From assembly GCA_043812955.1 (NCBI GenBank), contig JBDRLN010000018.1, positions 13,849-77,848 of the forward strand: 64,000 bases of DNA, given 5' to 3'. Shown here piece by piece: positions 22,606 to 48,900 of this stretch (within the stretch, counting starts at the first letter, position 1; every line of letters begins with the position of its first letter). The DNA is from Candidatus Omnitrophota bacterium. Its GTDB lineage: Bacteria; Omnitrophota; Gorgyraeia; Gygaellales; Profunditerraquicolaceae. The translations under genes were made by a program, and so were the position numbers. Under the pieces are notes generated by a model. It was given only the letters and a program-made list of their open reading frames with translations, ran no database searches and was not told where the DNA came from.

Positions 22606-22697
22606 CAGTTTCTCCTAAGATATATTGCTTTTTTTAGAGAAATATATATTAACACAATAGTTTATTTTTGTCGAGTGTTCTATTTTTAACCCTTCGT

Positions 22698-22730
22698 CCA
22701 CCCCGTAGGTGTCTTACACCTACGGGGTGG
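22698..22730. repeat. Repeat family C hairpin, second perfect copy (CCACCCCGTAGGTG tctta CACCTACGGGGTGG)
   Basis: Identical 33-mer to 13092-13124, sitting in the divergent msbA / comFB-cheR intergenic region. Confidence 0.8.
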
Positions 22731-22787
22731 AGCTGGTTCATAAATATTCTTTTAAATAGTACATATTTATGCTATAATTTTATCCCT

Positions 22788-24957: not shown

Positions 24958-27900
24958 CTACGGCCTAATAGCAATAAATCTCATCCCTCCATAATAAAAA
25001 GTATTATACATATCATTAATCGCCTCGATTACCCCTATTTCTTTGAGGCTTTCTACATCAATCGGTTTAATATCAAGCCGGGGGTTAACACTTTTTAACT
25101 GTTCAAAATCAAACCTGCGGCCTTCATTTTTAACCAAAGCCAAAGCTATTGTTTTATATAAAATCCGGAAATTATTACTAATGGGTATCTTATTATAATT
25201 ATTTCTGCTAATTACCTTTGTTTTAAGCGATAATTCCTCCATAGCCAAATGATTAATTCCGTCGACATAACTCTTATCAACCATATCAGCCATCATAATA
25301 TCGTTTTCCGCCTCCTCAAATAACAGATTGAGTTGTGCCGCGTCTTCCTGGCTGAGGGCTTTACCTAAAATCCATCTTAATTCTACTTTAAACAATAATT
25401 CTTCAACCGATAACAAGGCCAGACTAGCTTTAAGATGAAACCCCCGGGCAAAATACCTGCTGGCATAAGAATCACTCTGCATTATCTCGGCAGTATATTC
25501 CGGAGTAAGCGCTAAGTTTATTTTTTCCTTAGCCTCGGAATATTTACCCTGTCGATTTAAGGCATCGGCTAAAATTATATGGCTTAAAACCAGCCAATCC
25601 TGTCTTTTATGATTCACCAACCATCTCTTAAACTTTAATAGTTCTTTTGCGTTATTTTCTATCTCCTGATTTAAATATACGCCTCCTACGTAGAACTTAT
25701 TTTTAGTCGACATTTTATCCAGATATTGGATTTTTTCAAAAATATACCTGGTCCGATTATCAGCGCCCTTAGACAAGCGGACTGCTTCATCAAAATCCGC
25801 TAGACACTCTTTAAGATTGCTTTTATCAAAATTAAGTATGGCCCGGATATAATAAGCTACCGGAGAAAAAAAATTCGGCGTATTGATAATCTCTTCGAGT
25901 TTATCAAAAGCCTCTTTAGTAAATCCTCTTTTTTTCTCGGCCAGTTTAAGATAAAAATCTTTCATTTTTATATCCTGCGGGTCATATTTAAATAGCTCGC
26001 CCAATAATCCTAATGCCAACGGATAATTCTTCGGTTCTCCTGATATAAGTTTTGAATTAATGATCCGGTATAATTTTTCCTTGTGCTTGTCAACAACCGG
26101 CGACGACGAGGGACACCCTTTCAGCCAATCGAGGGACACCCTTTCAGACAATCGGGATGATGTCCCCTGCTGTTTTACATCCAATACCATAGCCACCAAC
26201 GCTCCCATTCCTTGCCACGCTGGCAAACCTAATCGGGACACGCTGTCCGAGCCAAAGCGGACACTGTGTCCTAGAGCGGCCGGCGAGCTAGAACAAATAT
26301 TAGCTACTTCTGCAAGAAACCTTAATGTTTTTCTAAACATAATCTTGCCCACTCTATCCTTGCACCAAAGCGCCTTGCCAATATCCAAAGCCAAGGGATT
26401 ACAATCAAGCTTCCTTCTCTTTACATTAGAAAACCAGTCCTTCTGTAATTTGGCATAGTCAGACCCGGTAAATTCAATTTTCCCCATGAGCTTGACATTA
26501 ATAGTATTTAAGTCAAACTGTTCATCTTTGCTATTAAATACGTGGCCGTGGCGCCACATAGTTTCATCAAAGTATGTCCTGATAAACAAAATAACAGGCA
26601 AGTGTTTAAGGTCTTCTTCTGCGGCATCAAATTTATTTTTAATTTTCTTCATGCCTAATAGGAAAACCTCAAGTATCATCTCCTCTAAGAACTTCTTAAT
26701 ATTATTTTCTTCTATTCTGTTGCTTATAATATAAACATTGCCGTAAAATTGCTTAGAGTCGCTTTCCATTATTGAATTAAATAATGACTGCGGCATGCCG
26801 TGAATACCTATATCAGGCAATCTTTCAATTAATTTTTTTACCTGGATTTGATCTTGCCGTAGATTATTTTTAACAGCCGGCGAGCTTCCAACGCAAAGCG
26901 TATCGCCTGCCTGCCGATCAGGCAGTAATCCGTCACTTCTTCTGGCGGAAGACTGCGCCACCGGCAAGGCGGCCGGCGAGCTGGAGCGAAACGTACCCCG
27001 CGACGAGGTAGTTCCGTTTAATCCCGTATTATTTAAAGCCGCAAAGGGAAAGGTATATTCTTCTTCTATTTTCACCTCAAAATCCGCCAACCTCTCCTGC
27101 GCTTCTATAACGCATCCTATCCTGGAATTACTCTCATCCAGATCAACCATCTCTCCGACTAAAATTATCCTTTTCACTCCCAGTTCAAACTTTAATATCC
27201 ATCGTAACCTATCCCAATTTGTAGATAAGCCAACCGGGCAAGCCATCCCTTCCAATTCCACGGGCTCCAAATCATCTAAATAAGTATTAATTAAAATCCC
27301 GTATAAATTATATTTTCTAAATAATTTACCTGCCTCTGTCAATAAATCCATCTTTGGCTTTAACCTGATTGTACTTTTAATATAACGCTGGTCTCCTATC
27401 CCGGCGAATATGGGCCCAGGATAAGACCGGACACGATCGGATAACCTATGAATAAAACTCCGATAACCTCTAACGGCATTCCCTCTTATTGCTTTCCGCA
27501 GTATCAAGGGGACTCTCTTAAAATTCCTGCTGATATAATCATCTAACACATTTTCAAAAAATAACGGGTGGCTCCATAATATAATCTCGTGATTATTCCG
27601 CGAAATACTCCGCCGTAATTCCTCTGAGGCTAAAACTGTGGATATCGGGATAAGCCTTTGACCATTGCCTGCAGGCGGACTGGAAGGTTTAGGCCCTAAC
27701 CTATTGACGCTCCGATCAGCTACAAATTTGGAGGCAAACCCCAATAAAACCCTACCTAACCTAAGGAATTTAACCGGCGAGCTTCCTTTCGGCACTGGCG
27801 AGGCGGAGGTTTTTTGGACTAAGGGAACAGCTGTGCCTGCAGATTTACCCAGCTGATAAATATATCTAAAAGCCTCATCTGGATTGTCACAAGAACTTAA

Positions 27901-30900
27901 AAGCGCTAGATAGCCAAGGGCATCGGCATAATCATATACCCACGCATTGAACCTCTCAGTTAGAATTTGAGGAATTATATAATCGCCAGGCCCAAGCCCC
28001 TTAAATACTTCGTCCAGTTCGCTTAACGTATCTACTCCTCTTGATTTAAATCTCGGGTATTCATTAATAGTAATTATTTTTCTTAAAATGGCCTCTTTCT
28101 GCCGAAAATTAAGCTTAGGCTTAATATGTATTACATCCACCAAGTGCCAATAGGCAGCCCCTGCATAGCTAAATTTATACCCTTTAATTTTGTAAAAAAT
28201 CGTATTGGCATAAGCATGGGCTAACAAAGGATGGTCGGGCAATTCTAGAAGATGGGCCATTTCGTGCGCCATATACCAATAAAAAGCGGTTAATCCTTCG
28301 ACATTATCCTTAGGTATAATTATTCTGCCTTTAATTGTTACCCCCATAGAGGGAGACACAGGGAAGAGAAATTTGTTTATATGCCAGACTCCCGCAATAA
28401 TAACACTCAAACCTAAAATGAATTTACCAAAACCCCTTCTGGATAATATTTCTTGAGGGGTTGTTGCCTTTGCCCCAAAGTATAAAGCCAAACCCGATAC
28501 CCCTAAAAATCTTGCCTCTTGAAGTTTCTCTTGACCTTTTTCAGAAAATCTCGGGTGGTCGAGCGACCGAATAACTTCCTGACAAATTTCTTCTTCCGAG
28601 AATTCCTTAATCGGAAACCCGACAAACCTAGAAGCCTCTTTATATGCATCATATACATCTAATACTACTGGTTTTAGTTCTGGTTTAATTTCATCCCCTT
28701 TACTAAATAGAAAAACTCCGTCATAGAAAAGTTCTTTAAGTAGGTCTAGATAGGCGAATATCATCCCATATATTTTTAAACTTTTTAAGAACCCCCGCCT
28801 ACTTTGTATACCCTCTATAGAACCCTCTGCTGCAGAAGAAGATACAGAACAAATACCTTTATCGGATTTGCCTGATAACCTATTATTTGGCAATGGTTTA
28901 GATAGAGCGTCTCTAGAATCTCTTACTGCCGGCGAGACAAAGGCCGGGCTGGAAGATGTTTTATCCATTGATATGCCTAATATATTTTCTATAAAACTTT
29001 CCGGCCAGCTGAAATACAATTTAAAATCTATATTGTTGCCTTCTTTAGCTGTAAACATAAACTCAGGGACCCAAGAACCATCTTTCCTCAAATACCCTTT
29101 TGTCCTGGCGGGGTTAATTTCAAGCAGTGCAGAGTGGCCGCGAAATGACAGGGCAAAGCGCGCTAATTTAAATTCTCTCCCCAGCCGCGCTTCTAATTGA
29201 GTTATTGAAGGTAAATACCCGGAAGAAACAATCAGAATGGTTGCTTCTTGCGGGCTTATATTATTATTTTTTAATTTGGATTTCAGACTCCGGATAAAAT
29301 AATCCAGATCTGCGTCTTTGTTCTCCCTGTACTTTAGGTAAACCTGCGCCAAGGCAGCAATTTTTCTGTCTTTAGCAATAATGAGGTAGGCGTCTTTACT
29401 ATTTAAAACATTGGAGACAAAAGTTTTATTATCGTTGCCTATGCCGCGAAACTGGTTGCCGGAGCTAAAATTGTCTATAGAAGAGGTAAATAAAATTACT
29501 ATCGCTGCTGCTATTAAAGAAGGATATTGTAGACGCTTTACGTAATCTATTACTGGAGAAGATGTTGCAGAATAAATACTTCGAACTGAACCTGTTGGCC
29601 CGGCCTTATTCAACCCTCTTTTGGCGATATAATTTAAAAATAGTGAGCTGGACTTATTAGTTATTATTTGATAGTTCATAGTTAATAGAGAAGCATCTCC
29701 CATTAAACTACCAACTACTAACTGCGTACTATGAACTAAACTAGCCGGAGAACTGGTAGTTGGTACGGCCAGATAGACGAATTCAAAATCCGACTTTCTT
29801 TTGCCGCTAGAAGTAGTAAGCAGGGCTTTGGTGATTGATTCTAAACTAAGGCTGCTTCCATAAAGATGGTAACCAACCCCTATCTTAAATCTCTCTTCCA
29901 TGATGCCGAAATGTTCAAACAAAGCTGGACGCTGCGGCAAATAAACATAGTATTCATTTACTGAATGCCCTAATGCCTTTCTTAGCATGCTATAAATAAG
30001 AAAAGAGCCTAACCCTATTCCCCGGTAACACTCTTCCTCTACCTGAAAATAATACCTTTGCTCTGTTCCCATCTTCAGCTTACCTTTGCGGATATGAAAT
30101 AAATTATATCCTACCCACGCTTCATTAAAATCAGCTTGATCAACTTTGAGAATTAAATGATAAAATTGCTCGTCACTAAAAAATTTGACAAAATTCCGAT
30201 TTTCCCTTATTGCAAATATTCCCTTCTTATTCTTTACACCTCCGATGAGTTCGCCATCCATTGTCTTAAAGGGCAACTGTCTTAGTACCATCTCTAATAA
30301 ATTTTGGGCGTCTATATTTTTACCCGACGCCGGTGAGGCGGCGGTATATTTAGCGTTTAGCGAATAACGGTTAGCAGATAGATCAAATAGACTACTATAC
30401 ACTCTACGCTCCATGCTATCCGCTGCTTTTTCCACCGGTGAGGCGGCAACCTTTTGAATAATCCTAACTGGCACACACCCTGCGGTAAAGGAAGTCCCAT
30501 CAACAAAAGATTTATTAATCTCACTCGTGCACAAGGACAAGATGTAGTTTACTTTTTTATATTCCCGCTTCATTAATACATCCTTAAATCCTTGCTGCTT
30601 TAATAAAAAATTAACAATCCAAAAATCGTGTTTTGAGGCAATAATAATAAAACCGTTCTTATGCAATAATTCTTTAATAATTTTTTGAATCAAGTTCAAT
30701 ATGGCTTTATCCGCTCCGCCCTTGACATAAGGAACTATGTTCGCGTATAAACCCTTGCTCCAAACAGTCAATCCTTTTACAAATAATACATCTATGCCGC
30801 CCGCCTGTTTTATTTGAGGAAAATATGATTCCGTCTTAAAATTATTCGCGACTATCGTAGTTAGATTTTTTGTCTTCTCTTTAAAAAATACCGGTAAGTT

Positions 30901-33900
30901 CATTTTCTCGCTAGCCATATTTTCTAATGCCTGCGGGCTTTGAACTGTGATGCCTAAACCGAATCCATTAAACATCTCGGCATTAATCCCAAACGTCCTA
31001 GCGGCAAAATAGGAAACAAAATAATCATTGCCGATCGAATTATATAGGACATTGCCTCCTAAGACCCCCATTTTTTTCAGGAGATGTAATATTGTAATAT
31101 AGTGTATAAGGGCGTTATCTAATCTTAACTTGTCATACTTAATATAGTCTCTAGTCCTTAACCATGTTAACGTTTGCCGGTCTAAATGAATTTGGTCAAG
31201 TATCCTTTCTATGTCGTTTTCGAAGAATAAACGGTAGAAATATTCCTCATCTAAAGGCGAGCTGGACCCATTTCCACCCCGTAGGTGGAAATGGTTTGCG
31301 GCTGGCGAGCTTCCGACACAAAGCCTGGCGCTTGCCTGCCGGTCAGACAGGGATCCGCCACGTATTGTGGCGCGGGGCTGAAGCACTGGTTCCTCAAACC
31401 AATTCACTATCAATCTACGGGTTCCCGGGATCATCTCGCCACCATTGATGAGAGGGCTCGATGTCGAGGCGGAACGCTTATCCATTAACATTACCTCCGG
31501 GAAACCTTCACTCAGGAATTTTGCCAAAGTTTCAACTGCGAGCTCCGCATCTTCGCCTTCTGCAATAAGCTTTACCTGGGCTGCGCTTATCCATGAATCA
31601 ACGATAGCATCCGCAACCGCTGCCAGCGAATCCAGTATTTTTTTAAGATTTACGGTTTCATTTTTATGTTCTATATAGATACGGGATAAAAATTTATTAG
31701 CTAGCGCCACTAAATTGCTGATATCATGTTCGTGTACTTCTTCGCAATTATCAACTATACATATTTTTTCTATCCTTTTCAGAGTATTTTCTTCAGGTGA
31801 AGATTTTACCGGCGAGCTGGATATAACAAAACTGCTACTATTTACTTCTGCCATTTTCACTTTATCTAATTTATAATAAGTTGTATATACGGGATCAGGA
31901 ATATTAGAAACAATTCTAAAGGGATCTGATTTTTGAAAAATTAATGGGATGCCTAATCCGGCATTATAATTTACTATTTTCAAACCTTGATGTGGTATAA
32001 ATTTAAAATCTCTTCCCCAAACCTTTATACTCCGCAAAATTGTTTTAGGTTTTATGCAAACTAAATTTGCAAATCCTACTCCTTCCGGTTTCAGCCTCCT
32101 TTTAAGAACATTGTAAACTTCCACTCTATCTTTGAAATATTGGCCAACATTATACCCAACCACAAAGATATCAAATAGGCCGGCCCCCAGAAATAATTGG
32201 CCCTCGTTCAAATCCCGCAAAATAAAATTATTCCTAAGGTGTTGAGAGTATCTTTCCGCCCTATCTAGGTCTATTTTCACTCCTAACCTTTGCATAAATC
32301 GGCCGGCTATACTATTTGCGTCTATTTCAACGAGATCATGCTTCGCTAAGGAGTAAAAACTTATCCCCTCTATATTTATTCTTTCTTTTACTTCCAGCAA
32401 AAACATTAATTCAAAAAGTTCATAACCCCTGCCCGGGCCGACCCATAAAATACTGATTTCGGGATTTCTTTTCATACTTTTTTTAATTCTGCTTAAAATT
32501 GACTTATAGAGATGTCCGTCGAATGCTTGGTTAATCTCCCTGAAAAAGTGGCTAATATAACCTTCAGGATAGTTAATCATCGGCGAGGCGGCGGTATTGT
32601 TCCTTATGGCCGAATTGCGACCGGAATGAATCGTTTGATTGATGGATTCATTTTTTGACTCAATGCCAGACAATGGGCTAGATACAGCGTCTACATCTTC
32701 TTTTTTGCTTAAATTTGAAGATATCGATGAAGTAAAGATAAGCCTGTCCACCCAGAAAAAAATCGCCGCGCCGATTAAATTAGCTATGACCGTCGCAAAT
32801 AAGCTGACGCCTAACCACCAGACAACCAACCACAAAACAGGGGTACTCAACTGCCAACGGATAAGATAAAGAATAAACCTTTTTATTGATAGCCCGCTGT
32901 TCGTTTTTTCTGCCGGATTGCTGGATTCTTTCTCTACAGGCGAGGCGGCGGCATATATGTTATTGATTATAAAACTGGCTGAATAAACGGCAGGGTTTAA
33001 AAACGCAGCTTTAAAAATTAGCAGCGGCTTTGGACCTGCCCTGATAGGACAGCTATCCATCAGCGGACTTGAACCGGAGTTTTCCGTAGAATTATCGGTT
33101 AATGTAATAGCCTGGGCCAAGCTCTTGCCTTCCCAAAGTAACCTGGCTACAAAATATTTGGAAGGTACATCGTATGGAAAATAATAATCCAGCGCTCCAT
33201 ACAGCATCTTTCCGTATTTATAAGTCCAAACCGGTTCTCTTGATAGGTTATCCCATAAACTCACCCTGCTCGCATCCAGTAAATATTTCTGCAATATCCC
33301 TACCGGGACAGCGCTGGCGATCAATTCACCTTCTGAGATATATTTACCTTCGGTTTCGGAAGATTTAATCATCTGAGATAATAACCTTTTTTCTTCTAAG
33401 CGTATAAGATTTATTAAATTCGGCAATCCTTCCCGATGAGCCTTTCTCAATTTTCCTGGCCATAACGCGTGAATAAATTCATGGGCAACAGTTAGTTCGG
33501 AATTTAACTCTACTAAATCTTTTGACCAAAGTTTTCTCCGTTTAACCAATATAGTCCAATTGCCAAGCACGGACTTATAAGCTGTCCCTAAACCCGGACA
33601 ATAACCTCTACCTCGACAAAAATCATGTAGCCGATATTTTACATGCATATAAAAATACAAAATAATCGTAGAAATAGCGATGCTGATTAGGATAGAACTA
33701 AATTCGTTGTCCGGGATTAACCCAAAAGGCTTAATTATAAATTCAGCATATGCCCAGAAAACCGTAAAAGCAGGCAACCCCAACAATAAAAACCCGGCTA
33801 AAAAAATAACCGACTCGCCGATAAAACCTACCATGTTTAACCATGAAGTACGCGGCGTATACGGTCTAACCGTAATTGCCGAAATAAATTTTTTAATTTC

Positions 33901-36900
33901 CTCGGTTGGTATCTCCGGATATAGGCGCGCTGCTATCTCTTCCATTTTTTTGCGAGCAGATTTAGCGTATTTTTTTGAAAAAGATTCTAAACCAATCGCC
34001 TTCTCAATAAATGAATCGATCTTCCGCGTCCATAGCGGCGCAACTCCAAAAACTCTATTTGTTACCGGCGAGCTGGAACAGCCTTCAGCTTCGGATATTT
34101 TCTTCTGGCTTAGGCTGGCCAAATCGGCTATAAGCCGATCGAGTTCTTTTTTAAAAGCTTTTCCTGACTCCTGACTCCAGAAATAATTAAATACCTGGAC
34201 TCTGGATAAACCATTTAGAATATCGCAAAGCATAACTGGATCTATTTTCATTAATGGCTTAAGCCGGCAACAAAGATAGAGGTTAATATCGCTAATACTC
34301 AAATTATGAGCGCCTAACCACATCTCGCTATCCCGGATTAACAAACCTATCTCATGCTCTATCCTCGCTCGCCTATCAACTATTTCAATAGCCCTTAAGA
34401 AAATATATAATTTCTTAAAATATTCCCCCAATTTTAGCTGTAAAGCATTCTTTTGTTCTGCGCTGACGGTTTTCTCGCTACTTTTGATATATTGTATGCG
34501 CAGACGAACATTATTAATTAATTCAACCAATATCTCGCCGGGATTATAAATCTTTTCCTGAAAACCAAACTGGGGATGATTTAAAAACTCTTTTAAATCA
34601 CTGGGATAATTTCTGGCCCCAAGGCGTAAATTACTAGATCTTGCTATAACTAAAGCTTTCTGAATAACTCTGTTGTTATCCGCTGAATCTACCATTGTCA
34701 TAACAGAATTTAAAATACCGCTAATACTTACATCGCTACTCCCTTGAAAAATTTCACTCAGTAGCATTTTTTGTTTTTCCCAATCAGCGCCTATTCTGTT
34801 AAATGCCTCTTCAATTAAACGATTAGACAACAAGCTATTACTCTTAGCAGCCGGTGAGCTGGCAGAAACCATGCTTACTCCGATAATTACATCGAATTTC
34901 GCCCCGCTTAACTGTCTTATTTTGGCGTTGATTATTCTATCCATATACCGGTAGTTCTCGGGTAAAAACCTTATCCCATACTTTTTCTCTTCTTCTCTCG
35001 CAAATGCCAAGGTGGTATCGCTACGGAGAAAATTTTTCATCTGGGCTAAGGGGAACTTCGCAGAGAATCCCTTATTTTCAGTAAAAATAAATTTTGGAAC
35101 TCTGCGCTGCCTAATTCCGGAGCCGTTAAAAATGAAGGCTTTGATTGTCTTTACCACATAACCGTCATCTGCTTCTCCAAAATATACGATATTCCTTATA
35201 TTACTGAATCTGGGTTCGGTAAGCACCTGAAGGTGGGGCCTGCGCAATTTCGAAGTTCCGATTACCTGTTGATATAGCTTACGCAGGGTAAGATGGAATT
35301 TAAATTCAAAAACAGTATTATCGCTGATCGCGTCAAATTCCTTGCCCGCCCCCCTCTTATCATAAAAAATCGGGTTAACTGATTGCACAATGCCCAAACT
35401 TATACCTTCTAAAGTAGTCCCTCTTTTGATGATTGCCTCATAAAGCCCGGATATTTCTCCGGCTAGACCCAGGACCTGTCCATTGCCGCTTTCTCCCTTA
35501 TAAACCCCTTCTGCCATTTTAGTAATGGCATTATTAACAGCCGCTTGGACGACAGATTCATTTTTACCCTTATAAACAAACAGCTTCTGCATCTTAAGCC
35601 ATAATCTGTTAAAAGAGAAATCTCTAGCGGCAAAAGCACTGATTACCAGAAGGCATTCTTTTAATTCTTCCGGCAAGGAAGAAGTTTTTATCTGTGTAAT
35701 ATTTTCAAGAAGGCTTTCAAGCGGCGAGGCGGCCGGCGAGCTGACGCCCTCATGGTATAGCCACAACAAATCACTAATTATCTCAGCCTGCCATTCAGGG
35801 ATTAGCTTAAGAAATGACGCATGTGTTACAATTTCATCTGGGGAATTAATTTTTGCTATGCTGTTATCGGAGAGTTTGAGGTTCGTGGTAATATTTAATA
35901 CCAGCTCCGGAGGGGCGCGGGCTTCTTGAGCCAGGCATACTGCCAGCTTCTGCAAACCAGCTCGCGACCCCAGAGCAATCCTACCTTCAGCTAAAATCAC
36001 GCTATATTTACCATTATTCAATTTAAACTTAATCTTAGCAAACAATTCCTTGCCGTATTCCGTTTCTGCCTCCTGCTGATCCTGCGCAGATACATCCAAA
36101 TACGATCTGATCGGCGAATTTACGCCGTAGACGTATCCGCTTCCGGCGGTGAACTGTGCCGCCGGCGAGGCGGCGCCTTGGCGCAAATCAATAAATTCAA
36201 ACCCCTTAGAACTAGCAATATTGGGTAATCTCCAGGGTGTGTTATTATCAAATGGGGCTTGCGGGTTTACGGCTAAATCTAATACCATATCGAACTCGGT
36301 TTTAATCGTACTCCTCACTAAGCCCAGCTTGCTCCAAAAGTCAAACTGACATGGCAGAGCCTTTAAAACAATAAACTTTTGGAGATTTAGACTATGCGCT
36401 TCCTCTATAATTAATGAGCCTATTGCCGAAAAAAGCCCTTTTTCCTGAAATGACGGACTAATATTGATATCCGCACGCCGGTTATCAATAACCATAGCAG
36501 CTTCTCTTTTATCCACGCGGTAATGACAGTAGCCGCAGAAAGGTCGTTCTGTTTCTATAAATTTATATCCTTCTCCCTGATAAAGTTTATCTTGATTAAT
36601 CCTATGTAAATCAATACTGATTAATGCTTCGCTGGGTATTTCCTTTTGCCTTAATGTAAAAAGCTCTTCTTTAATTAAGACAACCAACTGCAACACGCCG
36701 AATTGTTCTTTTTCTAATAACTCAGCGTTATCTAAACTAATTTTAACTGGCGAGCTGGAACCCCTGGAGCCCGATACCGGCAAAGCAGCAGATGATCCGG
36801 CTAGATAGACGGATTCAAAATCCGACTTTCTTTTGCCGCTAGAATTAGTAAACAAGGCTTTGGTGATTGATTCTAAACTAAGGCCGCGGCCATAAAGACA

Positions 36901-39900
36901 GTAGCCCACTCCTTTTTCCAACCTCTCTTCTTTAATACCGAAATGCCGGAATAAACCCGGCTGCTGCAGATAAACATAATATTCATTTACTGAACGCTCT
37001 AAAGCTCTTCTTAACATACAATAAATAAGAAAAGAGCCCAATCCTTCATTCCAATAATCTTCTTTTATCTTTAAATAACTTTCTCGCTCGTGCCCCATTT
37101 TGAGCTCATTTATAAGAATATAAAATAAGATATTTCCTACTCGCGATTCTTTAAAATCAGGCACGTCAACTTTTAGAATTAAATAATGAAATTGTTCACC
37201 TTGGCTTAAATTGATAAAGGTGCGCTTTTCTCTTACTATAAACATCCCTTTCCTGTTTTTTATGCCTCCAATTAGCCTGCCGTCTATCGCCTTAAGCGTG
37301 ATCTGCCTTAGCGCATACTCAAGGCCGTTTCTTTCAACGCCTGAATTGCCCGCCGGCGAGCTGGAAATTGTATTAAATTCTTGGGGACTAAATAGAATCT
37401 TTACGTCCGCGCCCCGATACAAACAGATCCCTTCTCTCCTTCTTATCGTCCGTCTGTTTAACTCTAAACCATACTGTTTCTTATAAATATCTTCCGCTAA
37501 ATCAGCAACTAAATAAGGGTTCCCGGGAAGGAAGTAGTAATCTGGGCCGAATTCTACTAAGATATCGATCATATCTATAAACAGCCTATTTAAACCCGCG
37601 CTATTTACGGCTTTTCTCAAAATAAAAAACTGGGCATAGGCATATTTATGAAAACCTGCGTCATAGATTGTGTTTGAACTTATAAACTTAAACGCTGATT
37701 TAAAAATACAATATGTGAATTCATTTCTTTGCTCCTGTCTAATCTTTAGTTGATTTAGTAGGACAGCCGCTGTAAATTCTGCAACAAATTCCTGTAATCC
37801 GGCAAAGGCTCTATATTTTGAATCAACGGAAAGCGGATTAGAATTATCCTTTAATTTTACAATAAACGATTGATTAGGGAAAAGAGCGTAAAGCCAATTA
37901 TGGCCTATTTCATGCGCGATTATTCTTAGGATTCCTTCAATACCATGGCTCAAATAATAGCCCTTAAGCCTGGCATAGTCATATTTAAAATTCGCGTTGG
38001 CTGTTCCACGATAAGAACCTATATCTAAATTCTGTATAATCTTTTGCGTAATACGCCTAACTATCGCGGGCGTAAATAAGGTATCTAATGACAATAACTG
38101 TACCGAAAGCGCAATATTCCACCCCAATAACTCTTCTTGAATCATTTTTAGCGTATTGTATTTAAAATACCGGTCTATCTTTTCTCGATACTCCATAGAT
38201 ACAAGTTTCTCGTTCAAATCACTCCTTACCAGATCGATTGAACGCCGTAGCAAAAAATTGATCCGCGAATTAATTAATAGGATTAGTTGATGGGTTCCAA
38301 CTGGCCATTTACCAGTTGCCGGCGAGCTGGCCTGCGGCGCCAGCGGCGAAGAAACAAATTCAAATTCTGATGGGTTTCTTTGGACCTTGATTCTTACACC
38401 AAGATGATCCGAGGCCAAGAAGATTCCTCCTTCATTTTTTATAACTTTTAATCCCTCAAATAGTTTCTTTAAACGTTCCTGATTCACTTCATCTGTTTTA
38501 AATAAAGAACGATACTGGGATATATACTCGTTAAAGGTGGGTTTAATGGTAACCGTATCAACAAAATCTCCATTCTCTGCCCAACGAAACACCCTAAAAA
38601 CAAGATTATAAATATACCAAAGAAACATTATCTCTGGATTTATCGCTGCTAACTCATCATCTATGACTTTATAACTACTCTTAAGCCTCCCATCGGGAAA
38701 TTTTATTATCATTTTATTAACATACCCTACAAATTTGCTTACCCTCCATTCAGACACCGGCGGGCTTGAGTCGAGAACCTCATTTTTTTCTATTTCTACA
38801 AATATTTCCGGGTATAGTTTCTTTAACCATGGCGTAATTTGTACGTCATTTTCTTTATAGATCACCTTAAATCTCTCTCCCAATTCTTCCGTAAATGGCA
38901 ATTGCATGCGGCCATCCGCCAAAGAATGGCCCCTAAGTATGAGCTTAAGCGCTGCGTCAGTAAGTTTAAGGCTAACTTTCGGATTTTCATTTTTATAATA
39001 TAGACTTAAAAGATACCAAACTTCACCGATATATATCGGAATATTTAAAGATTCATGATAAGACATATCTGGCTCTCTTTTTATTACCTCATCCGCGCAA
39101 TAGTTAAACATATCCACAATTAAATCTTCCGGCAGCTGACATAGTATAACGAAAAGTTCTTTATGTACGCTTTCACTTTCTAAAAATAGATAATATATAT
39201 TACTAGGATCAATATAATAATAAGCTTTCATGACTTCCCTTACCCACCTTGCCGTACTTTCATAGTCACCCCCTATCTTAAGATTGCGTAGTTTATCCTC
39301 TATTTCTTGAATAGATATTCCTTTGGGTGGAAAAAGATACCGTCCCTCCTTTAAAACGCTCATATCAGGCGTTCCCCATTTCCATTCCCGCTGCCGCCAA
39401 TAGGGATGCATATTAGTCTCAACCGGCGAGGCGGCGGTTTCACTCCTGACCCTGCTTTCATCCGCCGGCGAGCTGGCATAAAGCGTAGATGCCGGTATTA
39501 TTTTTCCGTCTACGGTTGCATCATTACCGCTAACCAATAAAGCAGAATAATCTCTCCGCAGAGAACCAGTAATGGCTCTGTGAAGATGTGCCGGCAAAGG
39601 CACCTCTTCACCCTGTTCTATCAAAACATTCGTAAAAAATATGGCTTCTGCTCTGTGTTGCGTTAACATGCCACTCTGCGCCGGATCTAAGAGATCGATA
39701 TATTTCGGCTCTACCAACGCGCGGATGTTGTTTTTCAAACGACAATAACGCGTGTCGTCCTTTACGATTTCGAAAAAGATATCAAAGTTTTCTTGTGTTA
39801 TACACTCGCAGACATAGGCAAGCTTATAAATACCCATTTTTACCGCGTATAAAAGCGGTATATTTTTATCCCAAGCCTCTATTCCTATGCTCCATGGTAA

Positions 39901-42900
39901 AGAAATAGCAAGGTTATCTTTCGCACGCAAACCTCCCCGTTTACCATAGAGGGCCATCAGGATAGAGTACGGCTGGTCTCCGCGCGAACAACCCAGGGAT
40001 TTTATGGTGAGGTGAAAATCTTTTTTCTTTTGTTTTTCTGGTACGAGCATATTGAGAAAGTTATCTAGATTCCATCGGTCAACGAATCTAAACAATGTCG
40101 ACATTTTCTCAGCTTCATTCAAGGGCACAAAACCGTTAAAAATCGCTCTGGTAATATAGCGGCGCTCTGTAGCATGGTCAGCCCCTGTTTTTTCGAGTAC
40201 CTCCAGATACCCGGTCAAATCGGTCTTCCAAGAACGGGCGCGCGATGCAATAAAATCCTGACATACCTCTGCCAGAAAGACTGGCAGCTCGACAGTAGCA
40301 AGACGGAAACTAAACACGGGTATTGTTTGATTTATGAACTGAGACAGATAATGCAAATCTTCGCCATTAAGAATAAAACGGATAACTTCCTCTGTTTTTT
40401 TATCCGCCGGCGAGCTCCCGCCACAAGGCGTGTCGCCTGCCTGCCGATCAGGCAGGGATCCGCCACGTATTGTGGCGGAGGACTGATCCACCGGTGAGGC
40501 GGCGATCTTAGTTAATTTATACACAAAGATACCGCCAAACGGAGCACTTAAGACGTGGAAACAATCTAAAACAGAATGCCTAAATTTACCTTTAAGTTCT
40601 TTGGCTAACCGCAAAGCAGGCGGATACTGTGAACGTAAATCCGGATAAGGTATTATAATTGTGCCATTTTTCTTAAGGAAGCCGGGAGACTCGGTAATGA
40701 AACGTGAGGTTAACCTGAATTTAGGATCGTGCGTAGCAAGATGTTCCGGTTTCTCAATAGGCATATCTACGAAAGGCGGATCAAATATTATGTAATCAAA
40801 TTTTCTGTCATTAGGAATGTTAGAAAAAAGATCGCTTACGATAGCTTCTGCCTTGTCTTCCAAGCCGGTAATTCTAAAATTCAGGTTAGCATTATCTACT
40901 TGCTCTTTGAATGCGTCAACCGCTAAAACAGAACCGCCCTTCAAGGCGGCTATTATAGCTTGAATGCCGGAGCCTGTGCCCATATCCAAAACTTCCTTAT
41001 TCCTGAAATCCGCCTTATTGAACAGCGCGTTTGCTAATATTGCGGTAATTAACATATCAGGTGGGTATGTTCCCGGAAAACTAACGATTACCGGAACCGG
41101 TTGGTCCGGGAAATACCTTTTGATCCCAAAAACGATTGTGTTTAACTTGAATTGGCGCTTAGTTACTGAAACTACATCCTCTGATTGGCCGGCCGGCGAG
41201 CTGGAGTGTTTCTTTTTTAGGATCTTTTGTTCAAAATATTCTTCTATTATTAATGCCGGGTCGACCGGCAAACTGGATAATTTACTAGGGTTGTCCGCCC
41301 GCAAAACGGCGTCCTGATTAATATCTATCGATACATAAGAATCAGTGTGACTTTTTGATTCACGTAGAATTCCTACTAAACACTTAACAATAACGGTTGG
41401 AATGGCAAAAATTAAATAGAAGGAAAGATAGAACTGCCAGGTAAAATAAGGTTCGGCTGCCACAAGATATAAATCTAGAATAAAAGCCGTAAGCCAGGGG
41501 ATAATGATCAACTCTGAACTCGTAGACCAGTACGTAGAAATAAATTTTAAAACAATAGGATTAATCTTTTCTTTAGAAAAAGATATTTGGATTTCTCCTT
41601 TGAAGAACAACGTCAGAAATGTTTTTAAAGAGATTGATTCCCAAATTATTTCTTGCGGCAATAATTTCTTAAGAGTAAAGGGGATGTGCAAGATTCTCCA
41701 AAGGTTAAAAGTTATCCAAGTTGAAATAAAAAGTGAGCCAAACATTCCATATGTCAATATGAGCGGGCTTTTAAAATTCCAGCCATTAAACCAAAATAGA
41801 AATATTAGATTCGCACTTCCAACAAAACCGCCTACTTCAATCAAAGAAGGCACCATGATCTGGCCTATAAACCACCCTATCTTCGGCAATCCGAATTTCA
41901 TAAATAGTTTTTGAAGGTAGGAATAAAATCGTTGTAAGAACGGCCAGCCAATGAATACTACATTGACTCTTGGTATATTGGAACGGCCAACCGGAGAGCT
42001 GGAGGGGCGCAAATAAATTTCTACCACTGATTTCAATATTTCTATTTGTTTTTGTTCCGGCAATGTAAAAAGGTAGGGATTAATTAAAAAACGTGTTAAG
42101 GAACGGTGGGCTATAATAATATATTCCGGAGGTGCGGTAGCCATATGATAACTAGTCAATATTAAACGATTTTTTAACTTTTCCTTCATGCCGGAGACAG
42201 CGCCGGCATAATTATCGCCATATAATAAATAAATTGATTTGGGTAATCTTAACGGCCCCATTACACTCAGTTTAGAACATTCCTCTTGGACAAATGTATG
42301 GATTATGTCAACCCTAACTCCGAACTTTTGAATTAATCTGCCTGTTATTATATTAATATCAGCAGCATCTACCCTCTTCATCTTTGGCCATAATCTAACA
42401 GATAATAATTCAGTTAACGTTGCCAATTTTATCTTATCATTATTATCTTTGGAAATTTCCGCCGGCGAACTGGAATAAAATAGCTCCCATAAACCTTTTA
42501 TCCGCTCATCTACAGAGACTGCCCGACTTCCGATAAACCAAAGACTGCTCTTTCGGGCATTAGGAAATCTATCATAAACAATACATTTACCTATCCTGAT
42601 AGAATCTCCGATTGCTTTCTTATTTTCTCTAAGCCATCCTGCTAATGAATCGTCATACCTGGATGAATCTTCAGCAAAGATTTCTTTATATGCCCCTGCT
42701 ATTTTGCTAAATTCTTCCTCTAGAATACCAAACCCCCCAGGGTTAGCTGTAATAGGCAACATAAGATAAAATTGCGCGCCGGGCTGATTTTCCCTGTATT
42801 TATGTGCAGCTATACTTTTAATAGCGTTAGCAACGCAGGTAGTTAGGTTACATCCAAATATAATAAAATGTTTCCCGGCAAAGAATTCTTTACGCAGCTC

Positions 42901-45900
42901 GAATTCACCTGCCCCAATCCATCCGAAAAATTCGTTTGATATATTGGATTTTTCCTCAATAATACGGTTGTCGTCAACGTTTTGCATGACCTCTAATTTA
43001 TAATTAAACCCGGTAAACAAATCACCAATCTTATCTGCCATCTTATCTGCCCTAGCAATATCCAGTTTGCTTATCAGGCCTTCCGTATGTACTCCTATAA
43101 CCCTATAATCTTGCGGGATAAATAAACGCTTTACCAGCGGCGAGGCGGCAACAGGTGAGCCGGGAAAACCGTTATTTACAGCTTGAGTAATACTATTTAA
43201 AAAATCCCGGTTGATAAACGCATTTTCTTGAACAGGTAACAGCCGGCTCAAAATCATCCTTAATATAGCTGGATGAATATTTTCCTCTTCCAAGGTGGAA
43301 ATAATCCCGTAAACCATCAGACGTTCTCTTAAAGCCATGCCTTTTTTGGTACGTGCAACAAGGCTGACTTGCGTTGCTTCCTGATACCGCCGCATGGCTT
43401 CTAACACCGTAATTGCCCCTAATCCTTTCTGGATTGGGCTCCCAAGCTCAATACATAATAAACGAAGTTTATCTATATCGTAAGAATAGTCGAGCCAGCT
43501 TATCACTTTATTATTTTCTACCTCCATTACTTCTAACCTGCTTATTCCATTTGGCTCAGGCCCGTTATGCGCGGGGTAAAAAACATTTAAAAGTATATTT
43601 TTAGCTAGCTCTGCCGCACCATTATTAAACCGAAACGTGGATCCTTTATAAACATCCTGCCAGAGATGTTTCCACTGGCTGAGTCCACTAGAAAGATACT
43701 CCGCTGGCGAGCTGGACTGGCTTACGCCTCCCCGAGCCATTTTTTCCGCCCAAGCCTTATTGAGCACTCGTTTTATTACAGGTATACCTTCTGCGGGACA
43801 ATAATTCTTAGATTCGGCAGCTATAATACCTTTTATTTTTATACCTCTTGCTTCCAACGCCATAAATAGCTGGCGGGCTTCCTGCAATAAGATATTCTCT
43901 GGAATATCAACTCTTCGCCCAATTATCTGCCCAGTATTGTCAAAATCTATAGCCCAAGTCCCTTTGTGAAGGAAATAATCGGAACAGATACTTACCCAAG
44001 CTGGTTCATCTATATCGGGCAGTTCACGAAAAAAACTCCTCACTGTAATCACTTTAATCCCTTCAATAAACCGTCTTGGCACTTGCTCTATCTGATAAAC
44101 GGGATGGATCAGAAAATAATCTTTTATCTGTCCCGTAATTTCGCCTTTGGTAACCCAATTACTTTCGGTTCTAAAAAATGGCTTGTTAGCTTTTATAGCT
44201 TCGTGGATTTTATGGTCTCCTCTATCCGCATGAAAATCAAAGATTAAGACAATTTCGTCTTGTCCAAGCATATCCAGTGTTTTATCATGGGTATCAACAA
44301 AGATTATGCCTGAAGAAAACATAACTTCCACCGGCGAGGCTGAACTATTAAGCACCTTAACTTCATATAAGAAAACAGGATGAGAAAAACTTGTATCTGC
44401 GATTTCAACCTTAACTAATTTTGCGATGCCGCTCCGGGAAAGCACTCTTATTGTTTCTTTTTCTGCTGTTCCCAATTTATCGCCTAATATTGCGGCGCAA
44501 AAAGTCTGGCCGGTATATATAAAATCAAAAACATTACTCATAAACGGAATATTCCGGACATCCGCCTGCGCAATAAAAACTCTAGAGCGCTCTTCCCCTG
44601 TAAATTTATTTAACTCCTTGCGCAAATTACGGATATTTTTATCCCAAAATTCAATTACGTATATTTGAACATCGGGAGCGGTTATTTCCAATAAATATTT
44701 TACCTCTCCCAGCGTAGGGCCGGGTCCTATCACACATATACGCTTAACACCCTCCGGAAGATATTTAATCGTTGTTTTAATAAGGCTATGTACAAATGAA
44801 CGCTCAGGAAAGAAATAATCTAAGAGGCTTCTTCTATAATAGTAACGGCCGGCAAGTCCCGGGTAATCCCTTAAATTATTCCTTACCGGATCATTGTATT
44901 TTTTAAAAATCGGCGAGGCCGCGGAATATATGTTATTAATTATAGTGTTGGCCGAAAATACGGAATGGCTTATAAGAAATGTATTTTGCGGATTTTCCAC
45001 ATTAATAACAGGGCTGCTGGTTATTTTCTCTATTTTCAGGTGAGTTGTTACTGCGCCTTTTACACCCCCCTGCATGATCCTTCTTAGAATATTTTCGATG
45101 GCTTTTTTGTCTTCGGGGTATATGATTCTTTCTAGCAGTCTTTCCAGCCAAACAACAGATTCCTTAACGCGTAATAAATATAAGCTATCCACCGCAGAAA
45201 ATACTTCTTCCCTGTTGCGAACAAGGTCGGCTTCCAACATCCGCATTAAACAGCTAACTATCTGTGCTTTTTCTTTATCATTTAGCATATTGTTAAACCA
45301 CTTCCTAAAACTAACCCTTATCTTCTTTTTTGCATCTTTCATTGGTGCCCTATCAAATAAATAAGGTATAGCTATATTTCGAAACAAAAATCTTCTTAAA
45401 TCTTCATCATTCGGAATTTGTAGATCTTTCTTTTCTTTCCGCAGTAAATTCCTTATATTGCTGACATCTTCAACGCTTAATCCCTGGCCGTGCGCCTTAA
45501 AAATTGAAGCCAAAAATAAACTCAACCATGTTTCTTTTTCAAGCCCCTTTCTTCCGATCCCTAAATTGTTTAATCTCTTCAGATAAAGTTCTGGATTAGA
45601 TATTGGAGATTTGGTCTGCGCCAGCGGCGAGCTGCTGAAAACAGGCAGATTGATTTTATACTGCGGCTTGCTTCTTACTTCTTGGCCAACAACAAAAGTA
45701 AACCCGTCAGGAAGGATACTGCCTATTCTGGTAACCAATGTTTCAAAGATAAATTTGTAATGCTTAGAAATATCATCTTCTTTTAATCCTATCTTCTTTC
45801 TTATCGCATCTATTTCTTTAAATGTAATTTTGTCCTTTTTTTCTGAAACAAGCTCAACTGAATGTATTCGCCAATTAACCGTTAGCCGAGCTATGTACTC

Positions 45901-48900
45901 TTCGGCTATTATTCCTGACATATTCCTTAATCTTATCTCCATCAGCCATTCTTTATCGAAACCTTCTTTAATCTTCTGTATCTTGCCTTTGTATTTGGGC
46001 GTTAAATCTAAACTCTGAGATAGTGATTTTTGGAAACCGCTGCAATCTTCTTCTGTAGGCTCAATAAAACGTATAAGGCCCTGTTTTTTCAGCTTATCTA
46101 AATGTTCAGTTAAGATAAGTTCGCCATCGGCTAATTTTATAATGATCCCATCTTTTAATAATCGTTTTATTTCTTGGGGAGTTCTTGCTTTACCATTTTT
46201 AGTGGTTATTAATTTCATGGGCTCTTCGCAGGTAAGCGGCCTAAAATTTTCCGGGGTAAAATTTCCCGGATCTGACCATTCGCCAATATGGTATAACAAT
46301 CTATCCTTAAGCCGCATTTCCTTAAAGTCTCTGTGCCCATCTTTTATTTTAGTTAGTTCAGGAGTAAAAAGCGTACCCTGAATTGATTTATAATACTTTG
46401 CAATATTCGGAGTCTGGATGGCCTCTATATTAATAAAGGAATCCAGGGCGTAAACATAATGTTTGGCTTCTTTTAGATCCCAAGTTGATCGAGGAATACT
46501 TAAATTATCGCCGCGGTCAAGCAATTTAATTGCCCTGGCATACTTGGAACTTGAGTGAAATATCCTGCTTATAAACTCCTCTTGAGTTTCACCTTTTCTT
46601 TGAGTGAGAATTAAGACTATATTCAATATAAAATAGGCTTTTCTAAACTGTAAAGTTTTAAAAAGAGCGAAACCAAGTTTAAGTATGAACCAACTTATTC
46701 TTTTTCCTGCATCTCTGTATTCTTCTATGGTATCGTGCAAGAGGATTACAGAAACAAAAACATCCAATTGTAGTTTTAGATTATCAATGTCCTGAAAGAT
46801 TCCTTTATCCTTAACAATTTTTGCAACCATACGTAGGAGGTGCATAAGATATGGCTCGCCAAGCGCCTGCCGAAATCCGGGATGAATCTTCTTGGCTATC
46901 TGATAGGAAACTTCGATAAGGTTAATATTAATCCCGGGAGACATAAGTGCCAGATTATCCTTTAGTGCATTAAATTGCTGATCAAGTTCTTGTTCAGTAT
47001 ATTCGCGCGGAGAATATTTCATAAGATAAACCGGTACGGAAATCCTGTCTTTCTCCCAAAATGTTGCCGTGCCCCTGACTACCTCCTTCATTTGCGGGAA
47101 AAAGCTAAACCATTTTTCAGCGGTAGTAAGTAAAAACCCGTTATTTTCAAGCCAATCAAGCATATTACTGGCAATGATAAAAGTCCGAATATGGCCGATT
47201 GGTTTTTGTTCTTTTTCAATCAGGTATTCATAAAAATTATAAAGAATAGCGTAAAACTTCTCCTCCCTTGGAACATCTAGTCGAATATCAATAAATTTAC
47301 GCACATCCTCTTTTATCTGATAAGTCCCCTCTTCTCTTAAATCAAAATAGCGCTTAAGTAGTACCCTGGTTGTCTCGGAGAGATAACGCTCTCTATTTAA
47401 GGTTTTAAAACAATCTACATGATAAATACCTTTTTTTGCTTTATTAAACGCCTTCTTATCGAAATCAAATACCGCAACTTTTAAAATATCGGGGGTAAGT
47501 TCTATTCCTTCCCAGGCCCCGGGATTTTCTCTTCTATCCTCTAGAAGCCAAATGACTACCTGGTGAGCCTCGGCAATAGTGGAAATACCGTATAATTCTC
47601 GTACTGAGCCAAAACTTAAAATTTTAATCTGCTCCCCTGGTTTTGCCTGCGCTAAACGCTTTCTAATTAAAGGAATAACATCTTCTTTAAACAAGCCCAT
47701 TACCTCTTTTCTTTCACCTATACCTACATTAAAGAAGCGATAAGGATACGATACTTCTTCCTTACCCTGAGCCCTCATCTCTTTCGGCACTCCCACTGCC
47801 GATTTTCTTCTATCCTGATTAACCGGCGAGCTAACCGAAAAATTGATTTGGGCTTGAGCGCGCGGAACAATAAATACACTCATATCCCCATAATAATATT
47901 CGGGTGAATCCTGTATTGTTCCAATTACTTTTATTACCTTAAGAATTTCTATATCTTTAGGATCTATATCAATATTTATTTCACTCAATTCATTTAGGCT
48001 AAACCTGCGGCTGTCTTTTTTACGTAAGAGCCAGGCAATCTCTCGGAGCAATTTGCTAAGGCTTTTTCTGTAGGAAATGCAAGAGATAATATCATCGAAA
48101 TCCTTTTCTTCAATCATCGTAAATTTATTGGATAAATTCATAATTGTTAAACAGTTTCTGCCTTGAAGATAAGATCCCCCTCGCTCAAAGGCATTCTTTA
48201 TGTCGTTTGCAGCCGCAGCAAACAAAAGTTTTAAACCATGGATGTCATCCCTGATAGCTAATCCACTAATCCAGCTTAGTTCCGTCTTTACGAGCATCTC
48301 TTCAATATTAGTCAGCCTTATGCTCGCCCTAAGGTCAAAGGCCCGGGCAATATATTTATCCACCGGGAATCTATCTCCTTTTATATTTATCAGGTAGCTT
48401 TTCTGGAATAAGGTGTTTAAAAAATCTTCCGCATATTGATATTCGTTTTTACCGATTAAGGCCTGAATAAGAAAAACATTTACAATAAATTCCCAATTAG
48501 GGGTTACATACTGACGTAATATTTGATCAAATTGAGAAACCTCCAATACCGTCCGATTAAGCTCATCGGCAATATCAAATCCGTGAGCATATAATCTACC
48601 GGACTGAAGAAAATCATCCAAGTAGGCTGCTTTTTCAAAAAGATATGCTACTCTGTCCTCTAGCGTCTGTGAAAACCTGATCGCAGAATTTAAATCTTTT
48701 AACCCCGCCTCAAAGTTACGCATCTTAAGATGGAAAAATGACCTTAAGTGGTAGCCCGCCGGGCATAGATCGATCTCGCCGATGATCTCCTCTGTTTTTT
48801 GAAAAGCCAAGGCAAACAGATCTTCACTCATATCGGCAACTTTTAAGTAATCAAGAATGGGCGCTATATCTTGAGGATCCCATAGAATCAATTCTTTAAG

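Follow-up and report, generated by a model that had tools for sequence, protein, structure and literature searches.

The giant proteins of the Omnitrophota might function as continuous chains or be processed into fragments, and an inventory of their protease-like modules bears on this question. The window analysed here, a stretch of 64,000 nucleotides from a Candidatus Omnitrophota bacterium, contains part of one such giant gene together with three HExxH motifs, and the question raised by this locus is whether these motifs mark metallopeptidase modules and what such modules might cut.

24958..64000, minus strand: giant ORF, a single open frame with its sole stop at 24958-24960 and its 5' end outside the window

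Within the window this ORF comprises 13,013 codons, the full protein having more than 13,000 residues, and it is built as a chain of about 50 modules linked by [S/G/A]SSP[A/V/L]. Its in-frame Pfam domains include methyltransferases, glutamate dehydrogenase, B12/radical SAM, CheR and HPr, and with more than 10 kAA and many unrelated Pfam domains it has the defining properties of an Omnitrophota giant multi-enzyme protein, belonging to the multi-enzyme metabolic and not to the dockerin/hydrolase class. The adjoining ABC transporter gene is 90% identical to its counterpart in the Ca. Omnitrophota MAG JAHKAP010000035.1, where a giant gene is syntenic. This giant gene from the closest MAG has the C-terminal module alone in common with the giant ORF and therefore yields no orthologues of the three modules discussed below (M1 to M3). 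Scans of genome and metagenome contigs with a 3,521-aa region and with M1+M2 as queries found no relatives, and exact look-ups of the genes neighbouring the giant ORF matched no recorded sequence. The sequence of the giant ORF is unique.

The 13,013 aa contain no HxxEH and exactly three HExxH motifs, all of them in the frame of the giant ORF:

37900-37914 (aa 8696-8700), minus strand: HEIGH, module M1
33469-33483 (aa 10173-10177), minus strand: HEFIH, module M2
28252-28266 (aa 11912-11916), minus strand: HEMAH, module M3

The original prediction had located each of them to within 3 nt in this same minus-strand frame, HEFIH reaching 3 nt beyond the end assigned to it. Its worry that HExxH occurs by chance at appreciable frequency in a protein of this size was too pessimistic, because the composition of the protein (His content 1.4%) predicts 0.18 motifs and not one of 2000 shuffles gave three. 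The HExxH flanks show a hydrophobic helix and a beta-like strand upstream, and Ala occupies position -1 in M1, in M2 and in 9 of 19 M3-family sequences. With a probability of roughly 0.6, the three motifs would belong to three unrelated metallohydrolase modules of zincin type (gluzincin-like), each a gene-sized unit of the giant protein, of which M3 would be a fused family copy, M1 probably a soluble gluzincin and M2 possibly membrane-anchored.

That the modules are independent of each other, as had been proposed, is borne out by pairwise BLASTP and hhalign comparisons, also against the M3 profile, in which similarity is confined to HExxH itself; M1, M2 and M3 are therefore not paralogues, and a PSSM of the M3-family helix singles out neither M1 nor M2. 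With respect to known families, HExxH as the hallmark of zincins is present in all three modules, and searches of Pfam and NCBIfam with whole modules and 161-aa windows returned nothing at threshold for any of them, no family among M48, M56, SprT, Wss1 and M6 matching a module. PADLOC likewise gave nothing relevant for the modules, and a search of PDB sequences with each module and with the M3 profile gave nothing significant. A word-index homology search had zero matches for each query (three-module chimera, M1 alone, M3 alignment); this index evidently misses the M3 family, since an exhaustive search of 1.84 billion representatives retrieved 18 homologues of M3 (E 2e-14 to 3e-4). The designation "metallopeptidase-like" accordingly suits the modules to different degrees: M3 has a conserved family and a predicted zincin fold in its favour, M1 has marginal HMM scores, and M2 has its motif and flanks.

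27766..28953 (aa 11683-12078), minus strand: M3, the equivalent of a whole gene in an unannotated HExxH family
27835..28347 (aa 11885-12055), minus strand: catalytic domain of M3, made up of a beta-hairpin, an active-site helix that bears HEMAH, and further helices
28216-28218, minus strand: H11928, on the helix after the active-site helix
28093-28095, minus strand: E11969, on a helix of the catalytic domain
27982-27984, minus strand: D12006, on a helix of the catalytic domain

The named members of the M3 family are hypothetical proteins of Ca. Omnitrophota, and the family is found as standalone genes (MBN2120705.1 among them) as well as within several multi-module giants. An alignment of 19 sequences (A1; 18-26% identity) has H191, E192 and H195 invariant, the full set of invariant residues being H, E, H, P, A, Y, R, D, P, Y and L. 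Such conservation of HExxH among homologues was seen for M3 alone, there being no homologues of M1 or M2 that span the motif. In the structural model, HExxH lies within a predicted helix (182-196; pLDDT of the block 88-93), and the predicted fold is that of a thermolysin-like zincin, as in clan MA, while Foldseek found no significant match of the model in the PDB. Going by this model, the M3 family, which is new and conserved, has the fold of a zinc protease; its two His would coordinate the metal and its invariant Glu would serve as general base. In gluzincins the third ligand (Glu, His or Asp) is carried by the helix after HExxH, in the motif (E,H)xx(A,F,T,S,G). The candidate in M3 is H11928-A-Y-A, in a column that holds N in 13 and H, E and D in two each of the 19 family sequences, and the acidic positions E11969 (kept in 18/19) and D12006 (19/19) may be alternative ligands. 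Among the marginal Pfam matches of family members are zincin families, DUF2268 foremost (best E 0.0011, in 2 of 19 members), with Aminopep, M78 and eCIS_core besides; unrelated families score similarly.

28783..28803 (aa 11733-11739), minus strand: SRRGFLK, resembling a twin-arginine motif, on the N-terminal boundary of M3 and aligning with the signal region of homologues
28366..28443 (aa 11853-11878), minus strand: SRRGFGK and a hydrophobic helix, aligning with the second TM helix of homologues

A Tat signal comprises S/T-R-R-x-F-L-K, an h-region and an AxA site, and forms the N-terminal end of the protein to be exported. HEMAH had been proposed to follow a Tat-like signal, and SRRGFGK and a hydrophobic stretch are indeed present in front of it; standalone family members, however, have a signal peptide and two TM helices ahead of HExxH, and by alignment with them SRRGFGK more likely contributes the basic loop of a TM hairpin and the hydrophobic stretch its second helix. 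SRRGFLK, farther upstream, is closer to the canonical twin-arginine motif and aligns with SRREFFK and the h-region of a standalone homologue (P0002), other homologues having Sec-type signal peptides at their N-termini; judged by this alignment, it is a signal-like relic of M3. Neither motif qualifies as a Tat signal peptide, as both are found only after some 11,700 residues of the ORF and the h-region of SRRGFLK is weak and charged. M3 would represent a fused copy of a family that is otherwise standalone, signal-peptide-bearing and anchored by a TM hairpin, and its catalytic domain would most likely face the periplasm or the outside.

As an alternative, the modules, and chiefly M3 with its predicted outward orientation, might degrade surface proteins or peptidoglycan peptides of a prey or host in the episymbiotic or predatory life of the Omnitrophota. 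In line with this, the standalone M3 homologues are predicted to be exported and membrane-anchored, the named members are Omnitrophota proteins, and giant proteins have been tied in the literature to prey attachment and degradation. However, no domain for binding a substrate or the cell wall was detected beside M1, M2 or M3, the neighbours of one standalone M3 homologue are uninformative, and the giant is of the metabolic and not of the hydrolase class, so that such a role appears rather improbable.

37345..38328 (aa 8558-8885), minus strand: M1, a soluble orphan, with HEIGH at 37900-37914
37756..37797 (aa 8735-8748), minus strand: putative "glutamate helix" of M1, LQEFVAEFTAAVLL, with marginal ArdC-type HMM matches
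37789-37791, minus strand: E8737, candidate third metal ligand of M1, 37 residues past the second His

For the core of M1 there are no homologues in the 1.84 billion representatives, the word-index search or the metagenome scan; its first 50 aa alone match a metagenome fragment of 101 aa (P0001), and tblastn against plasmids gave no match. In two independent HMM libraries the sole zincin match of M1 (the top match in PHROGs) is of ArdC type, with HExxH outside the matched stretch: Pfam MPTase-PolyVal (PF18818) matches the Glu-helix segment only, with E = 0.13 and 12.8 bits (cut-off 27.5), and the PHROG 7245 anti-restriction protein matches this same stretch only, with E = 0.017. M1 is thus below the gathering score of PF18818, in a match that does not span HExxH and the Glu helix. 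The profile register aligns E8737 with E229 of ArdC, which is a metal ligand in the crystal structure (PMC7213743), and this register, at E = 0.13 and 0.017 only, provides E8737-F-V-A as candidate third-ligand motif. A scan with a PSSM of the ArdC helix ranks the glutamate-helix site of M1 first or second among about 13,000 positions, and hhalign of M1 against an alignment of 11 ArdC domains aligned HExxH alone. As far as the sequence comparisons go, the resemblance to ArdC is real, M1 being no more than a candidate for membership of the family. E8737 on the ArdC-like glutamate helix is a plausible third ligand of what would probably be a soluble gluzincin.

33055..34074 (aa 9976-10315), minus strand: M2, an orphan, with HEFIH at 33469-33483
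33640..33843 (aa 10053-10120), minus strand: hydrophobic region of M2 with 2-3 predicted TM helices (Kyte-Doolittle scan)
33436-33438, minus strand: H10188, candidate third ligand of M2, in the motif H10188-R-E-G
33430-33432, minus strand: E10190, candidate third ligand of M2

M2 had no match in Pfam, NCBIfam, PHROGs, PADLOC, PDB sequences, the search of 1.84 billion representatives or the contig scans, and a single-sequence AF2 prediction of an M1+M2 chimera gave a model with pLDDT 36.8, which was unusable and discarded. As had been predicted, hydrophobic helices (aa 10053-10120) precede HEFIH, and they are followed by the basic stretch KYRLHDFCRGRG; by the positive-inside rule, this would have the HEFIH domain face the cytoplasm. 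At the level of its motif M2 is possibly a zincin, which might then be anchored in the membrane and face the cytoplasm.

With neither homologues, a family match at threshold nor a usable model for the M1 core and for M2, it is conceivable that one or both are not metalloenzymes, their HExxH being a chance or structural feature of orphan domains and M3 the only true zincin. Given the 0.18 motifs expected in the ORF, one chance motif has a probability of about 16%; two extra ones, however, have a probability of only about 1.4% (Poisson, mean 0.18). In addition, the downstream helix of M1 independently matches the ligand helix of ArdC, and both modules have the Ala at -1 and the hydrophobic helix context that are typical of zincin active-site helices. 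This alternative therefore seems unlikely, albeit to be taken seriously, and M1 and M2 are orphan motifs which it is too early to name proteases.

The SSP linkers, at which the modules had been suggested to process the giant protein themselves, are real, with 53 occurrences of SSP compared to about 3 expected. If one or more HExxH modules cut the giant product at these SSSP linkers, about 50 enzymes would be released and internal signals such as SRRGFLK exposed. The strictly modular architecture with its uniform linker and 53 SSP would be in keeping with this, as would the location of SRRGFLK, precisely on the N-terminal boundary of M3, where it could function only after a cut. Moreover, Omnitrophota giants have been speculated to be cleaved, by C39 or S8 domains (bioRxiv 10.1101/2023.11.21.568195), and as the domain searches of the 13,013-aa stretch revealed neither C39 nor S8, the HExxH modules are the sole protease candidates seen in the window. 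However, the N-terminal part of the gene lies beyond the window and may encode other proteases, the M3 family also occurs as ordinary free-standing genes that encode signal peptides of their own, and M1, M2 and M3 are mutually unrelated. In addition, the M3 domain is predicted to lie beyond the membrane, in contrast to the enzymes of cytoplasmic type (radical SAM, dehydrogenase, methyltransferases) that most linkers adjoin. Finally, 17 of the 53 linkers have the identical codons AGC-TCG-CCG (about 0.5 expected), and this conservation as nucleotides is at least as compatible with joints left by recombination or fusion as with protease sites. Self-processing thus finds no support and is very unlikely. 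Still a little less probable is its extended form, by which the HExxH modules would be maturases that cut the nucleotide-conserved SSSP joints and unmask Sec/Tat-type signals, so that modules are sorted to different compartments. The idea has nevertheless been narrowed to feasible experiments, for which the M3 family, an unannotated HExxH family with a predicted zincin fold and both standalone exported and giant-embedded members, is a concrete testable candidate.

Compared to known systems, the three zincin-type modules lack sequence-profile membership in the clan MA gluzincins (thermolysin M4, aminopeptidase N/LTA4H M1, lugdulysin M30, M48 HtpX/BepA), and Asn predominates at the canonical Glu-helix position of the M3 family (13/19), M3 itself having His there. 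Snapalysin (M7) has the motif HExxHxLGLPDH, and M3 (HEMAHLLELPDH) has L, P, D and H at the same spacing after its own motif, but the Asp position is Asn in 13/19 family members and Asp in M3 only. An assignment of M3 to snapalysin is unsupported (PDB sequence match E = 1.8). M1 resembles ArdC/MPTase-PolyVal (PF18818; ligands H201, H205 and E229 in R388 ArdC) in its AHExxH and in the helix QEFVAEFTAAVL, which is similar to EELIAEIGNCML of ArdC, but differs from it by a spacer that is 13 residues longer and by the lack of the WTGH and RLxR motifs and of the ArdcN DNA-binding domain. As for the giants described by West-Roberts et al. 2023 and Nielsen & Lui 2026 (Archaeovorins; bioRxiv), in the texts of which no mention of HExxH modules or of the SSSP linker was found and C39 and S8 are discussed as possible processing peptidases, they share with the present protein a length of more than 10 kAA, many unrelated enzyme domains, scattered TM helices and the uniqueness of the sequence.

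All three HExxH motifs of the original prediction are present and share one frame of the giant ORF, a minus-strand multi-enzyme gene, each within a module of its own:

24958-24960 (stop codon) to beyond the window end, minus strand: giant ORF, 13,013 codons, no in-frame stop
37900-37914, minus strand: HEIGH (aa 8696), module M1 (aa 8558-8885)
33469-33483, minus strand: HEFIH (aa 10173), module M2 (aa 9976-10315)
28252-28266, minus strand: HEMAH (aa 11912), module M3 (aa 11683-12078)

Scanning the 13,013 codons revealed no further HExxH and no inverted HxxEH. Since the His content of the giant ORF is only 1.4%, its composition predicts 0.18 HExxH, and a count of three was not attained in any of 2000 shuffles; the earlier caution that this motif arises by chance at appreciable frequency is thus not borne out, the observed number being above chance.

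The best supported of the three is M3, for which HMMER, run exhaustively over 1.84 billion representatives, yielded 18 homologs (E 2e-14 to 3e-4), all spanning the HExxH plus about 150 residues downstream. Eleven are proteins of 245-460 aa, of which three lack part of the N-terminus, and the other seven form parts of longer proteins (792-2692 aa); the named members are either Ca. Omnitrophota "hypothetical protein" entries or long proteins under wrong names. In the alignment of 19 sequences (18-26% identity to M3; consensus HELAHxLxLPNHxLLANAY ... REAxIRK ... KDYxIP ... WxYxYG ... YIYxLGQAxDSREL) the motif residues H, E and H are strictly conserved, as are P200, A206, Y209, R252, D285, P289, Y303 and L329. 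The canonical third-ligand position in the next helix is occupied by His in the window (H11928; family column N13/H2/E2/D2), and E11969 (18/19) and D12006 (19/19) are alternative candidates. With the family alignment, AlphaFold2 gave modest overall scores (mean pLDDT 75.8, pTM 0.74) and a block of pLDDT 88-93 comprising a beta-hairpin, the active-site helix with HEMAH and the next helix; Foldseek against the PDB found no significant match to this model. Curated HMMs matched family members only marginally, most commonly the zincin DUF2268 (2/19, E=0.0011), with Aminopep, M78 and eCIS_core amid unrelated families of similar score. The conclusion drawn is that M3 represents a real zincin-fold module, from a family that is new and lacks annotation.

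Full-length standalone M3 homologs begin with a signal-like segment, followed by a helical region and two TM helices ahead of the HExxH; this layout suggests that the catalytic domain faces the exported side. Action of an exported M3 on prey or host envelopes is a possibility. With respect to the Tat-like signal proposed before HEMAH, twin-arginine-like motifs do exist, but SRRGFGK with its hydrophobic stretch (aa 11853-11878) aligns with the second TM helix of the homologs. It is the upstream SRRGFLK (aa 11733) that aligns with SRREFFK plus h-region of one homolog (P0002), while other homologs have N-terminal Sec-type signal peptides. For these reasons M3 looks like a whole, once-independent gene that was fused into the giant ORF, signal region included. 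Only if the chain were cut could a twin-arginine motif that lies some 11,700 residues deep in a protein serve as a Tat signal.

For the M1 core no homolog was found by HMMER over the 1.84 billion representatives, word-index search or metagenome scan. Only the first 50 residues of M1 are matched, by a 101-aa metagenome fragment in which the M1-like part comes after a copy of the C-terminal-type module; this too is a sign that modules are shuffled. A 161-aa segment of M1 matched MPTase-PolyVal, the ArdC zincin-like domain (PF18818), in Pfam (E=0.13) and an "anti-restriction protein" family in PHROGs (E=0.017), both matches being confined to aa ~8735-8763, downstream of and excluding the HExxH. 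As R388 ArdC matches PF18818 without indels, the register is fixed and places E8737 on E229, a metal ligand in the ArdC crystal structure (PMC7213743), and E8741 on E233. With a PSSM from 11 ArdC-type Glu helices this site ranks first or second of ~13,000 giant-ORF positions, the chance of a top-2 site within 60 residues after any of the three motifs being ~3%. M1 is probably a gluzincin, judging from these sequence matches. Membership in PF18818 is not demonstrable, since hhalign aligns the HExxH alone, M1's spacer being 13 residues longer than that of ArdC.

As originally described, HEFIH of M2 comes after a hydrophobic region of two to three helices (aa 10053-10120), and a basic cluster behind the last of these suggests that its domain faces the cytoplasm. 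The motif flanks are zincin-like (a beta-like strand, then the helix ...TVAHEFIHAL), and H10188 and E10190, 11-13 residues past the second His, are candidate ligands. Representative search and contig scans gave no homolog, Pfam, NCBIfam, PHROGs, PADLOC and PDB sequences no match, and single-sequence AF2 no usable model. By motif statistics alone the chance of two extra HExxH is ~1.4%, so that the candidate M2 is likelier to be real than spurious. A 164-aa ORF antisense to M2 (33680-34174, plus strand) is probably spurious.

The modules of the giant ORF are 150-1000 aa long and spaced by [S/G/A]-S-S-P-[A/V/L] linkers, beside which short junction motifs recur in protein and DNA:

26982, 31818, 34074, 37362, 41202, 55488, minus strand, within 24958-64000: examples of SSP linkers
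40397-40503, 31292-31398, 26867-26973 (about; aa ~7845, ~10880, ~12355): GGSLPDRQAGDTPCGGSSPA junction motif, 3 copies
59306-59383, 26210-26287: HSVRFGSDSVS junction motif, 2 copies
55932-56021, 44886-44975, 32913-33002: SSPIVNVINPQN.../AASP junction motif, 3 copies

SSP occurs 53 times (3 expected), 17 of these being encoded by AGC-TCG-CCG, where the codon usage of the ORF itself would predict ~0.5. On the coding strand AGCTCGCCGG has 15 copies, on the opposite strand none; the DNA consensus of the linkers, CCAGCTCGCCGGT, lies between flanks that are not conserved. This codon bias is shared by the linkers of L001, a fragment of the syntenic giant gene in the closest Ca. Omnitrophota MAG. In two Omnitrophota multi-module homologs (P0003, P0007) a different yet analogous linker, [A/S]SSAV (ASSAVGLG, AASSAVEKK), replaces SSSP[A/V].

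The high-value alternative that the giant product is a polyprotein processed at these linkers by its own modules appears very improbable: the three modules are not paralogs of one another, the M3 family also exists as ordinary standalone genes, and conservation of the linkers in DNA fits protease sites no better than fusion or recombination joints, which could serve module shuffling. No C39 or S8 domain was detected in the window part of the giant ORF. We therefore favour, with a probability of about 0.6, the view that M1, M2 and M3 would be independent zincin hydrolases borne in a gene-fusion mosaic.

L001 shares with the giant ORF only the C-terminal TPR-like module (~390 aa; 6542-7625 in L001; 65% identity), its remaining 2,150 aa being unrelated, and paralogous modules occur within the giant ORF itself (aa 8880-9081 and 11221-11415, 60% identity; aa 5003-5389 and 12632-13013, 34%). 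These comparisons indicate a quick turnover of modules among orthologous giant genes. Further, unrelated HExxH modules were seen in other Omnitrophota giant fragments (TAHEKIH, VEHELNH and, twice, LYHELSHEATG), the sites being at ~5790-5805 of L001 (aa ~1929 of the fragment), aa 512 of P0003 and aa 307 and 1739 of P0016. Motifs of the zincin-like kind thus seem to recur in giant proteins of this type.

The giant ORF is flanked by diderm housekeeping genes (UppS, PurA, SerA, LptC, KpsF and an MsbA-like ABC transporter), the transporter being 90% identical to its copy in the Candidatus Omnitrophota MAG with the syntenic giant gene. Directly downstream lie:

22668-23888, plus strand: PilZ-domain protein
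24177-24887, minus strand, divergently oriented: ComFB-CheR methyltransferase, a CheR-like module being found inside the giant ORF too

In-frame Pfam domains reveal a chain of unrelated enzyme modules, including several SAM methyltransferases, Glu/Leu/Phe/Val dehydrogenase, Pol-beta nucleotidyltransferase, B12-binding radical SAM, CheR and HPr; long stretches, among them the region of all three HExxH motifs, have no Pfam match. The M3 family is new and M1 and M2 are orphan candidates, while the zincin superfamily and this class of giant genes are already known: among Omnitrophota giant proteins, the giant ORF fits the "multi-enzyme metabolic cluster" class, which is described as being for the most part sequence-unique and membrane-associated (bioRxiv 10.64898/2026.06.07.730766; bioRxiv 10.1101/2023.11.21.568195).
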